Shown here piece by piece: positions 14,504 to 18,960 of a stretch of DNA of 64,000 nucleotides. This stretch comes from a bacterium. GTDB lineage: Bacteria; Acidobacteriota; Thermoanaerobaculia; Multivoradales; J023. Within the stretch, counting starts at the first letter, position 1, and each line of letters opens with the position of its first letter. A program made the translations under genes and the position numbers. The stretch is from assembly GCA_024226315.1 (NCBI GenBank), contig JAAELT010000489.1, positions 4,830-68,829 on the forward strand. The letters run 5' to 3'. The notes below the pieces were generated by a model, which was not told the origin of the DNA, searched no databases, and saw only the letters and a program-made list of their open reading frames with translations.

Positions 14504-15076
14504 ATGACGGCCCCGGGAGACATCACCCAACTGCTGGTCGCGGTCCGCGACGGCGAGACATCGGCCATGGACCGGCTGTTTCCGCTGGTCTACGACGAGC
14601 TGCGGGGAATGGCGCGCCAGCGCTTGCGCCGCGGCGGCCCCGAGCAGACGCTGAACACCACCGCCCTGGTGCACGAGGCCTACCTCAAGCTGGTGGACCA
14701 GACCCGGGCGCAGTGGAACGACCGTGGCCATTTCCTGGCGGTGGCGTCAGTGGCCATGCGCCACATCCTGGTGGACTACGCTCGCCGCAAGACGGCGCAG
14801 AAGCGCGGCGGCGAGGAGCAGCCCGAGGTGCTCGAGGAAAACCAGCTCGGCGTCGTCGCCCGGGCCGAGGAGATCCTGGCGATCGACCAGGCGCTCGGCT
14901 CGCTGGCCGAGCTCAACGAGCGTTTGAGCAAGCTGGTGGAGCTGCGTTTTTTCGGCGGGCTGTCGGTGGCCGAGACGGCCCATGTGCTGGACGTGTCGGA
15001 GCGCACCGTGAAGCGCGACTGGCGCAAGGCACGGGCCTACCTTTATCGTGCCCTCCAGGAGCCTCGGGACGACTGA
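14504..15076 (+). CDS. ECF-type RNA polymerase sigma factor of the Ser/Thr-kinase-associated subgroup
   Basis: 190 aa. Region 2 (…LVHEAYLKLVD…) and region 4 HTH (…LSVAETAHVLDVSERTVKRDWR…). Stop TGA overlaps the downstream kinase ATG (ATGA). Confidence 0.85.
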   Translation: MTAPGDITQLLVAVRDGETSAMDRLFPLVYDELRGMARQRLRRGGPEQTLNTTALVHEAYLKLVDQTRAQWNDRGHFLAVASVAMRHILVDYARRKTAQKRGGEEQPEVLEENQLGVVARAEEILAIDQALGSLAELNERLSKLVELRFFGGLSVAETAHVLDVSERTVKRDWRKARAYLYRALQEPRDD

Positions 15077-18000: not shown

Positions 18001-18960
18001 GTCATGGGTGCCGTCTATCGCAACCTCGGTCTCTACGAGCCGGCCGGATCGCTGACCGAACGGGCGCTCGAGCTGGGCCGGGAGGTCCACGGCGACGGCC
18101 ACGCCGAGGTCGCCGCGAGCCTTACCCAGCTCGGCCGCCTGCTGTTCCTGAAGGGCGACTACGACGCGGCCGAGGCGCCCCTGCAAGAGGCCCTCGCGAT
18201 GCGCCGCGAGATCCTCGGAGACGATCACGAAGACGTCGCCGAGACTCTGAGCGAGCTCGGCAACGTGCTGTCCTCGAAAGGCGACGCTGGCGCGGACGTG
18301 CTTCTCAGGGAGTGCCTGCGCATTCGCCGCCTGCGTTTCGAGGCGCCTCACGACAAGATCGCCGGGGCGCTGTTCAGCCTCGCCTTCTTCAATCACTTCC
18401 GGGACAGCGAAACCGCCGAAGAGCTCTACCGTGAGGCGCTCGCGATGTACGAGCAGGTCCACGGCGACTCCCACCCCGTGGTCGGCGACGTGCTCAACAA
18501 CTACGGTCATCTGCTGAAGACGCGCGGCGACCTGGCGGCCGCCGAGCCGCTGATCCGCAGGTCCATCGAGATCGCCCGCCGCATGCTCGGCGAGGATCAT
18601 CATCTGCTGGGCATCAGAGAGAGCAACCTCGCCCGGCTGTTGATCGCCAGGGGCGAGTACGCCGCGGCGGAAGATCCGGCGCGCCGGGCGGTGGCGATCT
18701 CGATACGAGGATTGGGAGTCGACAACTGGCAGACCGCGATCTCGCGCAGCATTCTCGGCGCCAGCCTGGCCGGGCAGGGGCGATACGAAGAGGCCGAGAA
18801 GCTCCTGGTGGAGGGTTATCGCGTCATCCGTGCCGAGCGCGGCGACGACTACGACTACCTGCACGAAACGCTGGAGAGCCTGATCGCCATGTATGATGCC
18901 TGGGACAAAGTGGAGCAGGCCGCTAACTACCGGGACCTCCTCGCCAAGCTCGAACAGTGA
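15076..18960 (+). CDS. multidomain Ser/Thr protein kinase: kinase - class III adenylyl/guanylyl cyclase - second (non-RD) kinase - TM helix - TPR repeats
   Basis: Domain 1: GGGGMGVVYEA, VALKLL, HRDIKPANV, DFGIAK. Middle: cyclase-homology-domain-like segment (…LLLIDLVASTRL…GFLLLFERP…). Domain 2: GEGGFGEVW…LHKDVKPGNV…DFGVGL. Hydrophobic segment ALATAVAALVVFGAAMAY, then ~10 TPR-like repeats to the C-terminus. The listed ORF from 14470 is an in-frame read-through; the real start is the ATG overlapping the sigma-factor stop. Confidence 0.85.
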   Translation: MPDSVERWRRVEAIFDEALELPAAEVPAHLDAACGGDDGLRGEVEALLGADQQAGAFLETSAGAYAATLIREALPATRQDPLEGRRLGPYRVLRRIGGGGMGVVYEAVDTRLFRRVALKLLPTSLNRDPDAKERFVREARAASALDHPNICAIHDIGETDGGRMFIVMAYYGGRTLESMLADGPLEIDDALDLAAQVSRGLERAHEAGIVHRDIKPANVIVTEHGEVKVLDFGIAKIVGEAGLTRSGVAPGTPAYMSPEQTRGEPVDERADVWSLGAVLYQLIAGRRPFEGRNEMAIYMAIQEREPKPLGDWRGDVPEALERAVMRALVKEPAERTGSVAALLDDLAAIKEARRGTAVGAALREGVAVRTLLLIDLVASTRLAQRLGDRHLAEVSAEHDRLARDVLAAHGGLEIDKTDGFLLLFERPIDAVGCALAYHRGVAGLSEKLGVDLAARAGLHLGEVHLRRNPPEDVARGAKPIEVEGLAKPIAARVMSLAGGRQTLVTQSAFELARRAADELALEDEVRWLAHGDYLLEGVAGPIGVFEVGAPGFAPLAAPVDSEKARRAVAAEEVVLGWRPAAGAPLPERPHWVMREKLGEGGFGEVWLAGHDKTDERRVFKFCYEAQSLKALEREVTFFRLMKEALGDRDDIVRILDWNFARAPFYLESEYTAGGDLIEWAASEGGLAAVPLETRLELVAQVARALGAAHSVGILHKDVKPGNVLITTGPDGAPRARLTDFGVGLVADRSLLPEIGVTLLGLTEDDDYTSAGTHLYLAPEILEGRLPTVQADLYALGVMLYQMVVGDFSRALARGWQRDVDDEILREDIACFVDGSPERRPAGAGEIAERLQRLDARRAEREAEKRARREAEEARRAVERGRRRRRALATAVAALVVFGAAMAYQVRQTRLEARRAEHEAAAARQVSAFLEDLFEVVDPSEARGNSITARAILDRGARRIEDELADQPEIQARLMGVMGAVYRNLGLYEPAGSLTERALELGREVHGDGHAEVAASLTQLGRLLFLKGDYDAAEAPLQEALAMRREILGDDHEDVAETLSELGNVLSSKGDAGADVLLRECLRIRRLRFEAPHDKIAGALFSLAFFNHFRDSETAEELYREALAMYEQVHGDSHPVVGDVLNNYGHLLKTRGDLAAAEPLIRRSIEIARRMLGEDHHLLGIRESNLARLLIARGEYAAAEDPARRAVAISIRGLGVDNWQTAISRSILGASLAGQGRYEEAEKLLVEGYRVIRAERGDDYDYLHETLESLIAMYDAWDKVEQAANYRDLLAKLEQ

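Follow-up and report, generated by a model that had tools for sequence, protein, structure and literature searches.

What does a bacterium do with a protein in which two kinase domains enclose a nucleotidyl cyclase fold, encoded directly behind the gene for an extracytoplasmic function (ECF) sigma factor? We have analysed such a protein in a 64,000-nucleotide stretch of DNA from an acidobacterium of the class Thermoanaerobaculia (contig JAAELT010000489.1 of assembly GCA_024226315.1), referred to throughout as the window. The protein has 1294 residues, is identical to a deposited record named ‘MAG: protein kinase [bacterium]’ (MAG, metagenome-assembled genome), and is made up, in order, of an N-terminal segment (Nt), a first kinase domain (K1), a cyclase-homology domain (CHD), a linker, a second kinase domain (K2), a stalk, a transmembrane (TM) helix and tetratricopeptide repeats (TPR) (Table 1). 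We think it somewhat probable that the ECF43-type sigma factor encoded upstream is activated by this protein as its cognate kinase, and that the protein joins a module resembling the kinase PknS to a receptor built from a CHD and a kinase, with the CHD serving mainly as a scaffold.

An earlier note on this DNA, made from the letters alone, had described two kinase domains flanking a cyclase-homology domain in one polypeptide, and Pfam, the kinase motifs and the matches of the middle domain bear this description out. Pfam detects two Pkinase stretches in the protein (1.7e-76). The glycine-rich loop (G-loop) of K1 reads GGGGMG (aa 97-102) and is followed by VALK (with K119), HRDIKPAN (aa 211-218), DFG (aa 231-233) and GTPAYMSPE; against the sequences of the PDB, K1 matches PknA (1e-59) and PknS (entry 9EED, 2e-46 over aa 6-346). 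K2 carries GEGGFGEV (aa 598-605), VFKF (with K620), E634, LHKDVKPGN (aa 714-722), DFG (aa 739-741) and APE (aa 777-779), and its PDB matches include StkP (7e-19) and PknS (5e-16). The catalytic motifs of K1 (G-loop, β3 Lys, αC Glu, HRD Asp, Asn, DFG and APE) are ~100% kept across 87 clusters of homologs, as are the G-loop, K620, E634, D717, N722, D739 and E779 of K2 across 175 clusters. Thus HRDIKPAN/DFG in the first kinase and the HKD-type LHKDVKPGN in the second are both present as had been reported, and the possibility that K2 is a pseudokinase scaffold is excluded by its ATP-binding lysine (K620), its GEGGFGEV loop and its other catalytic motifs. Judged by these residues both K1 and K2 look catalytically active, and neither appears to be a pseudokinase.

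The middle domain is a genuine class III cyclase fold of an unusual subtype. When it is aligned to class III cyclases its identity as a CHD is confirmed: phmmer against PDB sequences returns Ma1120 (1e-11) and the CHD of Rv1900c (6e-11), a profile of 23 family members reaches the Rv1900c CHD at 1.9e-17, and Foldseek, given an AlphaFold2 (AF2) model of the domain (pLDDT 91.8, pTM 0.88), places the Rv1900c CHD first (E 3.6e-15, template-modelling score 0.87), ahead of Ma1120, trypanosomal GRESAG4, CyaB, Cya2 and CyaC. The Pfam model Guanylate_cyc (PF00211) gives no match to the domain even at E <= 10 and, because this model misses the CHD, public Pfam annotations show only kinase and TPR domains. 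In NCBIfam the CHD matches the N-terminal 200 residues of TIGR04510 (6e-62), and the full-length scores fall short of the cutoffs both for TIGR04510 (210.2 against 400 bits) and for TIGR03903 (201.7 against 705.75 bits).

Scoring of the catalytic residues gave a divided answer, in that both metal-binding Asp residues and the transition-state Arg are present and the transition-state Asn is replaced. In HMMER alignments D375 and D418 correspond to the Asp pair of Rv1900c and Ma1120, the Arg is R492, and E481 and E483 are also kept. The Asn position is occupied by P488; Pro stands there in ~70% of the CHD family, and Asn never does. The Lys position is ambiguous between D415 and K416, the family having a one-residue deletion at this point (‘EIDKT.DGF’), and the Asp position is probably E481 (HMMER and manual alignment). 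At the lysine of ‘LKG’ the window has E536, and no member of the sigma-linked clade has Lys there; a near-invariant insert, ‘LRxNPPEDVARGAKPxEVEGLAKP’, takes the place of the usual arm region in the family. Rv1900c (LipJ) and Ma1120, the best matches in both sequence and fold, share the two metal Asp residues and the Arg with the window CHD; the family of the window differs from them in its insert with Pro at the Asn position, its one-residue deletion before the second Asp (Asp2), its fusion to kinases and its lack of a PF00211 match. Rv1900c is reported to be active although N342 and H402 stand in place of its canonical Lys and Asn, and would in this respect resemble the window CHD, in which the Asn is likewise replaced and the Lys position is blurred; loss of both residues alone therefore does not exclude catalysis.

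We have also found that the sigma factor bears the mark of control by a kinase. It matches Sigma70_ECF (PF07638) and scores above the TIGR02999 cutoff of 126.15 bits, and in region 2.2 it reads NTTA where ordinary ECF sigma factors carry the acidic DAED/DxxD. The second Thr of this xTTA motif is unchanged in 8/8 sigma genes that adjoin related kinases. ECF43 sigma factors are switched on by their cognate Hanks kinases at the xTTA Thr: EcfP has an STTA motif whose second Thr is phosphorylated by PknT, in EcfK, PknS phosphorylates the corresponding T51 as well as the linker between σ2 and σ4, and the ECF43 consensus is QTTA (PMC8999054, PMC13147305). On its sequence, the sigma factor of the window would be a kinase-controlled member of the ECF43 type. 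No Pfam match to an anti-sigma family was found in a scan of the larger neighbouring ORFs (open reading frames), and the statement of the earlier note that this family of ECF sigma factors is typically governed by an adjoining kinase and not by an anti-sigma factor agrees with NTTA in place of the acidic motif and with the lack of an adjacent anti-sigma gene. To our knowledge, direct activation of a sigma factor by Ser/Thr phosphorylation is well documented for ECF43 alone; the partners that have been studied, PknT and PknS, have a single kinase domain only.

The two genes lie close together. A PF07638 sigma gene lies immediately 5′ of the kinase gene in every ortholog locus examined (L001, L002/3, L004 and L006/7; L-numbers denote homolog loci and P-numbers homolog proteins). 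In the window the sigma stop and the kinase start do share sequence, as previously claimed, through TGATG and not through ATGA: the junction reads GAC GAC TGA TGC, with TGA at 15074-15076 and ATG at 15076-15078, so that the overlap is a single nucleotide, and AGGAG at 15057-15061 lies 14 nt 5′ of the kinase ATG. The overlap is likewise 1 nt in L002/L003, is 4 nt in L006/L007, and gives way to gaps of 37-104 nt in L001, L004 and L005.

Within the kinase, it is the Nt segment that accompanies the sigma gene. A hidden Markov model (HMM) of Nt matches 8/8 kinase-first ORFs that stand behind a PF07638 sigma gene, two of which belong to plain pairs of a sigma gene and an Nt-K1-TPR gene (in L014 and L039), and matches none of the K1-CHD-K2 genes that lack a sigma gene. 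Of the PDB kinases PknS alone aligns over Nt and K1 together and, because the Nt profile matches residues 6-69 of PknS (9EED, E 6.5e-6), we take Nt-K1 to be a putative PknS-like module. The AF2 model of Nt has three helices, with a pLDDT of at least 95 over aa 10-50, and a fold search of Nt against the PDB gave no significant structural match. The authors of the PknS structure (9EED) reported that the first 81 residues were not seen in the crystal, that three to four helices are predicted there, and that the role of this part is unexplained. We pair the sigma factor with this kinase because a sigma gene lies upstream at the ortholog loci, Nt tracks the sigma gene, and Nt-K1 matches PknS. At the other end of the protein, the stalk between K2 and the TM helix is rich in Arg and Glu, and by the positive-inside rule the protein would be oriented N-in, with both kinases and the CHD in the cytoplasm and the TPR domain outside.

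Table 1. Positions of the features discussed, in window coordinates (loci of other genomes in their own coordinates)
Feature	Position (nt)	Residues	Strand	Basis or remark
ECF43-like sigma gene	14504-15076	190 aa	+	PF07638 1.5e-54; TIGR02999 217.8 bits
Sigma2.2 motif LNTTALVHEAY	14651-14683	50-60	+	T53 is the predicted phospho-acceptor
Sigma stop/kinase start junction TGATG	15074-15078		+	Read off the sequence
Kinase-CHD-kinase gene	15076-18960	1294 aa	+	One uninterrupted ORF; ATG 15076, stop 18960
Nt, three-helix N-terminal segment	15076-15300	1-75	+	Candidate sigma-docking part
K1, RD Hanks-type Ser/Thr kinase	15331-16131	~86-352	+	Best Pkinase stretch, aa 90-337
CHD, class III cyclase-homology, TIGR04510-type subfamily	16156-16800	~361-575	+	PDB sequence/profile, AF2, Foldseek
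CHD-to-K2 linker VLGWRPAAG	16795-16821	574-582	+	Consensus LGWRPAxG; kept in 41/41 aligned homologs
K2, non-RD (HKD) Hanks-type kinase	16843-17730	~590-885	+	Second Pkinase stretch; charged helical stalk after it
Single predicted TM helix	17731-17790	886-905	+	Sole strong hydropathy peak; RRRRR just before
C-terminal TPR sensor domain	17839-18960	~920-1294	+	TPR_12 3.7e-42; TPR_10 4.7e-36
FHA + sigma-54 activator + HTH_8 regulator	12332-14263		-	Pfam; transcribed away from the sigma and kinase genes
FeeM-like N-acyl amino acid synthase (GNAT) + cNMP-binding fusion	22465-23613		+	cNMP_binding 2.8e-13; FeeM 3.3e-13
cNMP-coupled CHD-K2 loci	L008/L009 2873-4993; L010 3112-5004; L036, L040, L042, L072 ~5500-7975			

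How widespread is this arrangement, and which of its parts are kept? We searched 1.84 billion cluster representatives exhaustively with HMMER, taking aa 86-900 as query; the best 150 clusters at 50% identity, sorted by architecture, included 69 with K1-CHD-K2 (five of these with Nt), 69 with CHD-K2, and seven in which K1 and K2 occur without a CHD. The kinase-cyclase-kinase order had been called unusual; it is instead recurrent, being found in 69 of these 150 clusters, and a study of it did not turn up in our searches of the literature. Among GTDB species representatives the CHD subtype occurs at no fewer than 542 places, mostly in Acidobacteriota/Thermoanaerobaculia and also in Planctomycetota, Gemmatimonadales, Myxococcota (Archangium), Variovorax and Dokdonella; the best 79 species-level loci comprise ~45 with CHD-K2 (followed by TM-TPR or another sensor), 6 with K1-CHD-K2, 7 in which K1-CHD is joined to something else and ~20 in which the CHD alone is so joined.

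The catalytic triad of the CHD (Asp1, Asp2 and Arg) was scored in 175 pooled CHD-containing clusters. It is intact in 81/88 CHD-K2 clusters (92%) but in only 19/87 dual-kinase clusters (22%; Fisher p = 1e-22), a census that counts clusters and not independent evolutionary events, so that repeated loss would need a phylogeny. Within the dual-kinase group the intact triads are distributed as 16/74 for K1-CHD-K2 without Nt and 3/13 for Nt-K1-CHD-K2, the window protein being one of these three; in its nearest full-length ortholog, P0002 (65% identity), Asp1 is gone and so is the DG of the Asp2 motif. Since the kinase motifs are kept almost without exception and the triad is mostly lost in dual-kinase proteins, it would therefore be the two kinases, both apparently active, that are under selection, and the cyclase active site would no longer be maintained once the N-terminal kinase is present. 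The second-messenger output that the earlier note expected the cyclase domain to add is thus doubtful for K1-CHD-K2 proteins, though the copy in the window keeps its triad.

These observations can be assembled into a tentative mechanism with two modules. The first, Nt-K1, would have the arrangement of PknS from Xanthomonas and PknT from Vibrio, which phosphorylate a Thr in σ2.2. The second would be a self-contained unit of CHD, invariant linker, non-RD kinase, charged stalk, TM helix and extracytoplasmic TPR, as found in many Acidobacteriota and in other phyla. The TPR domain would sense a signal in the envelope and thereby alter the way in which the stalk and K2 dimerise; the CHD, a fold that is an obligate head-to-tail dimer, would position two K1 domains for phosphorylation of their activation loops, either by K2 or in trans, in the manner of RSK. 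Active K1, docked through Nt, would then phosphorylate T53 in the NTTA of the sigma factor, which may give the sigma factor the negative charge required for its binding to RNA polymerase. In proteins with both kinases the CHD would be mainly a dimerising or regulatory scaffold, and some nucleotide binding or weak cyclase activity may persist in the window copy. We infer the scaffold role because the triad is lost in most dual-kinase clusters, because that of P0002 has decayed, and because seven K1-K2 clusters do without a CHD.

The relatives nearest in the receptor part suggest how the two modules may have met. P0008/P0009 (locus L005) are closest to the window protein in the CHD (73-74% identity) and TPR (55-56% identity) parts; their sigma gene has an intact TTA and the permease context is shared. 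At L064 the permease gene is followed directly by a CHD-K2-TM-TPR gene and the sigma gene is absent. L005 and L064 are compatible with the addition of a sigma/Nt-K1 pair to a CHD-K2 receptor that already existed, and with occasional later loss of Nt-K1.

Several points weigh against the reading of this gene as an Nt-K1 sigma kinase with a CHD scaffold. At L005 the sigma gene is followed by CHD-K2-TM-TPR with Nt-K1 wholly absent, so that K1 is not strictly required there. D375, D418, R492 and E481/E483 survive in the window CHD, which may have cyclase activity. For the window and five orthologs, the DNA preceding the sigma gene was searched for a conserved ECF-type promoter, and no common gapped motif was found; scans for sigma-70 promoters and for terminators were uninformative. 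Finally, it is by analogy that we propose docking of the sigma factor by Nt, and by analogy that we infer the direction of the relay.

We consider it unlikely, while giving it real weight, that the CHD of the window is a working non-canonical nucleotidyl cyclase, so that the protein would have two outputs, phosphorylation of the sigma factor and a cyclic nucleotide read by the FeeM fusion protein of the window or by other receptors. The presence of all three triad residues, the reported activity of Rv1900c, the closest solved relative, without canonical Lys or Asn, and the 92% retention of the triad in CHD-K2 clusters all speak for a working enzyme. So does the genetic context of one CHD-K2 subclade, in which the upstream genes overlap or nearly abut CHD-K2 and encode TPR and cNMP_binding domains (cNMP, cyclic nucleoside monophosphate), with or without GGDEF, so that they appear translationally coupled; a second cNMP_binding-GGDEF gene is sometimes divergent there, and 8/8 CHDs of this group keep all scored residues except the non-canonical Asn position. 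For stand-alone CHD-K2 proteins such coupling suggests a signalling chain from cNMP to cyclic di-GMP in Thermoanaerobaculia and other Acidobacteriota. A general linkage of CHD-K2 to cNMP receptors was considered and rejected, as it is confined to this one subclade and other upstream genes are unrelated (haem-oxygenase-like, HMA, permease). Against a working cyclase in the window stand the loss of the triad in 78% of dual-kinase relatives, the nearest orthologs included, the ‘LKG’ Lys that is kept in 8/8 cNMP-linked members and is Glu here, and the failure of PF00211 to match; nor was a cNMP-binding neighbour found at the sigma-linked ortholog loci L001-L007. The window does hold a gene for a possible receiver. 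The FeeM fusion lies 3.5 kb downstream of the kinase gene and is the only cNMP-binding ORF in the window, as judged by an iterative search seeded with its own cNMP domain; the combination of FeeM with a cNMP-binding domain is itself unusual. Decayed genes separate it from the kinase, however, and its proximity may be a coincidence; as a single case it hints only weakly that this protein would receive a CHD product, if the CHD is active.

That K2 and not K1 phosphorylates the sigma factor, with K1 acting on other substrates such as the divergent FHA/sigma-54 activator, seems to us quite improbable. This idea draws on L005, where a sigma gene with intact TTA is paired with a protein that has K2 and no Nt-K1, and on the FHA/sigma-54 enhancer-binding proteins (EBPs) whose genes adjoin K1-CHD-K2 genes in the window, in L014 (where the EBP gene overlaps from upstream), in L031 and in L011. 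It has to be set against the location of the resemblance to PknS, a proven sigma kinase, in Nt-K1, the co-occurrence of Nt with an adjacent sigma gene in 8/9 cases, the fact that CHD-K2 proteins are usually not beside a sigma gene, and the absence of FHA-EBPs from the sigma-linked ortholog loci. It would be extremely improbable, in turn, that the tandem arrangement is an artefact of assembly or gene calling, for example a chimeric join of two kinase genes. The source does appear to be a MAG, and truncated, frameshifted fragments lie just downstream (19393-22336), but at least seven independent assemblies contain the same full-length architecture at 57-65% identity, each with the sigma gene upstream, 69 clusters have it overall, the ORF is unbroken, and its domain boundaries all match those of homologs. 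Direct control of the sigma factor through Nt-K1 is the interpretation that we prefer.

How does the window system compare with those already known? It resembles EcfK-PknS of Xanthomonas citri and EcfP-PknT of Vibrio parahaemolyticus in that the sigma and kinase genes are adjacent, no anti-sigma gene is present, and xTTA replaces the acidic motif. Its kinase, predicted to cross the membrane once, has the form of the PknS and PknT receptors, with an RD Hanks domain after a helical N-terminal segment of ~80 aa, and this segment is homologous to that of PknS, as described above. It differs from both in that a CHD and a second, non-RD kinase are added between the PknS-like kinase and the membrane, and in that the sensor is a TPR domain. 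The pairing of an ECF43 sigma factor with a Hanks kinase is known; the window has it in a tandem-kinase form with an embedded cyclase fold. The CHD shares its subtype with the first 200 aa of TIGR04510 (putative peptide modification system cyclase), while proteins of TIGR03903 (TOMM system kinase/cyclase fusion) likewise have a kinase N-terminal to a CHD; the C-terminal halves differ, with a second kinase, TM helix and TPR in the window, and no genes for ribosomally synthesized and post-translationally modified peptides (RiPPs) lie nearby.

More distant parallels can be drawn with eukaryotic proteins. Animal receptor guanylyl cyclases such as GC-A/NPR-A consist of a sensor, a TM segment, a kinase-like domain and a class III cyclase, and act as dimers. 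The order of domains counted from the membrane is the same in the window protein, whereas the polarity is reversed (N-in), the kinase is complete, the cyclase is degenerate and an extra kinase is appended. RSK/MSK, JAK and plant tandem kinase proteins have two kinase domains per chain, and in RSK one of them activates the other. Unlike in these, both kinases of the window protein are complete and have a cyclase fold between them, and the protein is bacterial, membrane-anchored and linked to a sigma factor.

In Acidobacteriota a tandem arrangement of kinases seems to be common. We note a very large family of proteins of ~1170 aa, abundant in Thermoanaerobaculia, in which two tandem PknB-like kinases are followed by Tol/DPP-IV-type beta-propellers (P0043-P0120). 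On one Acidobacteriota contig three CHD-K2 genes stand one behind the other (L013, 4625-13596). Radical-SAM genes recur beside members in which K1-CHD or CHD is joined to another domain (L087/L088, from Archangium, and L045, L023, L067 and L075), which is consistent with the label ‘peptide modification system’ that TIGR04510 gives to that branch of CHDs. In the window itself a single-domain Ser/Thr kinase of 759 aa is encoded at 37090-39369 (+).

Upstream of the sigma gene, the divergent FHA/sigma-54 regulator may be a reader of phospho-Thr and a further output of the kinase, a candidacy suggested by its adjacency; a paralog with the same domains and 45% identity is encoded at 52509-54422 (+). 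Further upstream are genes for a 976-aa reprolysin-like metalloprotease with cadherin/Big_9 domains (9329-12259, +) and for an AAA_14/DUF4143 ATPase (7651-9021, +), the latter resembling an ATPase upstream of the sigma gene in L004.

Just 3′ of the kinase gene, 19096-19230 (+) holds a lysine-rich ORF of 44 aa, MPKSADSQSKKKRSRRFVDRIKSLFKKKKPNSGLPTGTPQNIVT, with an AGGAGA ribosome-binding site and no match in NCBIfam. It is followed at 19393-21326 (+) by a diverged, truncated paralog of aa 624-1276 of the kinase (C-lobe of K2, TM and TPR; 58-69% identity), which has a frameshift near 20886-20913, lacks the G-loop and β3 Lys, and is probably a pseudogene or the result of an assembly problem. At 21312-21973 (+) the TPR end of this paralog continues in frame as an inner part of an S41 peptidase, which corresponds to aa ~380-640 of the S41 proteins (757-889 aa) encoded at ortholog loci; this fragment is frameshifted near 21836-21866, and the N-terminal half of the peptidase is missing together with the genes that precede it in the orthologs. 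The ortholog loci have a downstream block (L001, 10086-15185; L002, 10003-14716; L003, 5641-8635) that is absent from the window, comprising a pair of small ORFs in which ‘NFE(K/N)L(D/S)DAGL’ is repeated, a TIGR03104 amidotransferase, the S41 peptidase and a methyltransferase. We rejected the idea that this block is a RiPP or peptide-modification cluster tied to the TIGR04510-type CHD: its supposed ‘Asn synthase’ is the TIGR03104 N-acetylglutaminylglutamine amidotransferase (757 bits; cutoff 570), the small ORFs have no family match, and the genes of the block are not in the window. An anti-phage role was likewise rejected, as matches to MADS6, PD-T4-6 and PglW reflect generic kinase similarity, that to PycC is weak (0.002), and there is no defence context.

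The locus would thus represent a recurrent variant of the ECF43 theme, found in at least 69 clusters at 50% identity, a few of them linked to a sigma gene, in which a cyclase fold connects the sigma kinase with a second kinase close to the membrane. Because a segment homologous to the N-terminal 81 residues of PknS tracks sigma adjacency, the analysis also offers a likely role for that unexplained part of PknS. The CHD itself looks like an enzyme domain turned scaffold, its cyclase residues being strongly kept in CHD-K2 receptors and collapsing where an N-terminal kinase is added; at the same time a large subfamily of cyclases missed by Pfam is brought to notice, some members of which are genetically coupled to cNMP-binding/GGDEF proteins. 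A more speculative extension, which we think distinctly unlikely, is an intramolecular relay in which the membrane-proximal non-RD kinase sends a signal from the periplasm through a dimeric (pseudo)cyclase to a PknS-like kinase that acts on the ECF43 sigma factor, and which may also feed the FHA/sigma-54 activator and, in copies such as this one that keep the triad, emit a cyclic nucleotide. If this were true, one protein would be a hub with up to three outputs, and the Pfam-invisible CHD-K2 family would form a new class, that of receptor cyclase-kinases comparable to the animal receptor guanylyl cyclases.

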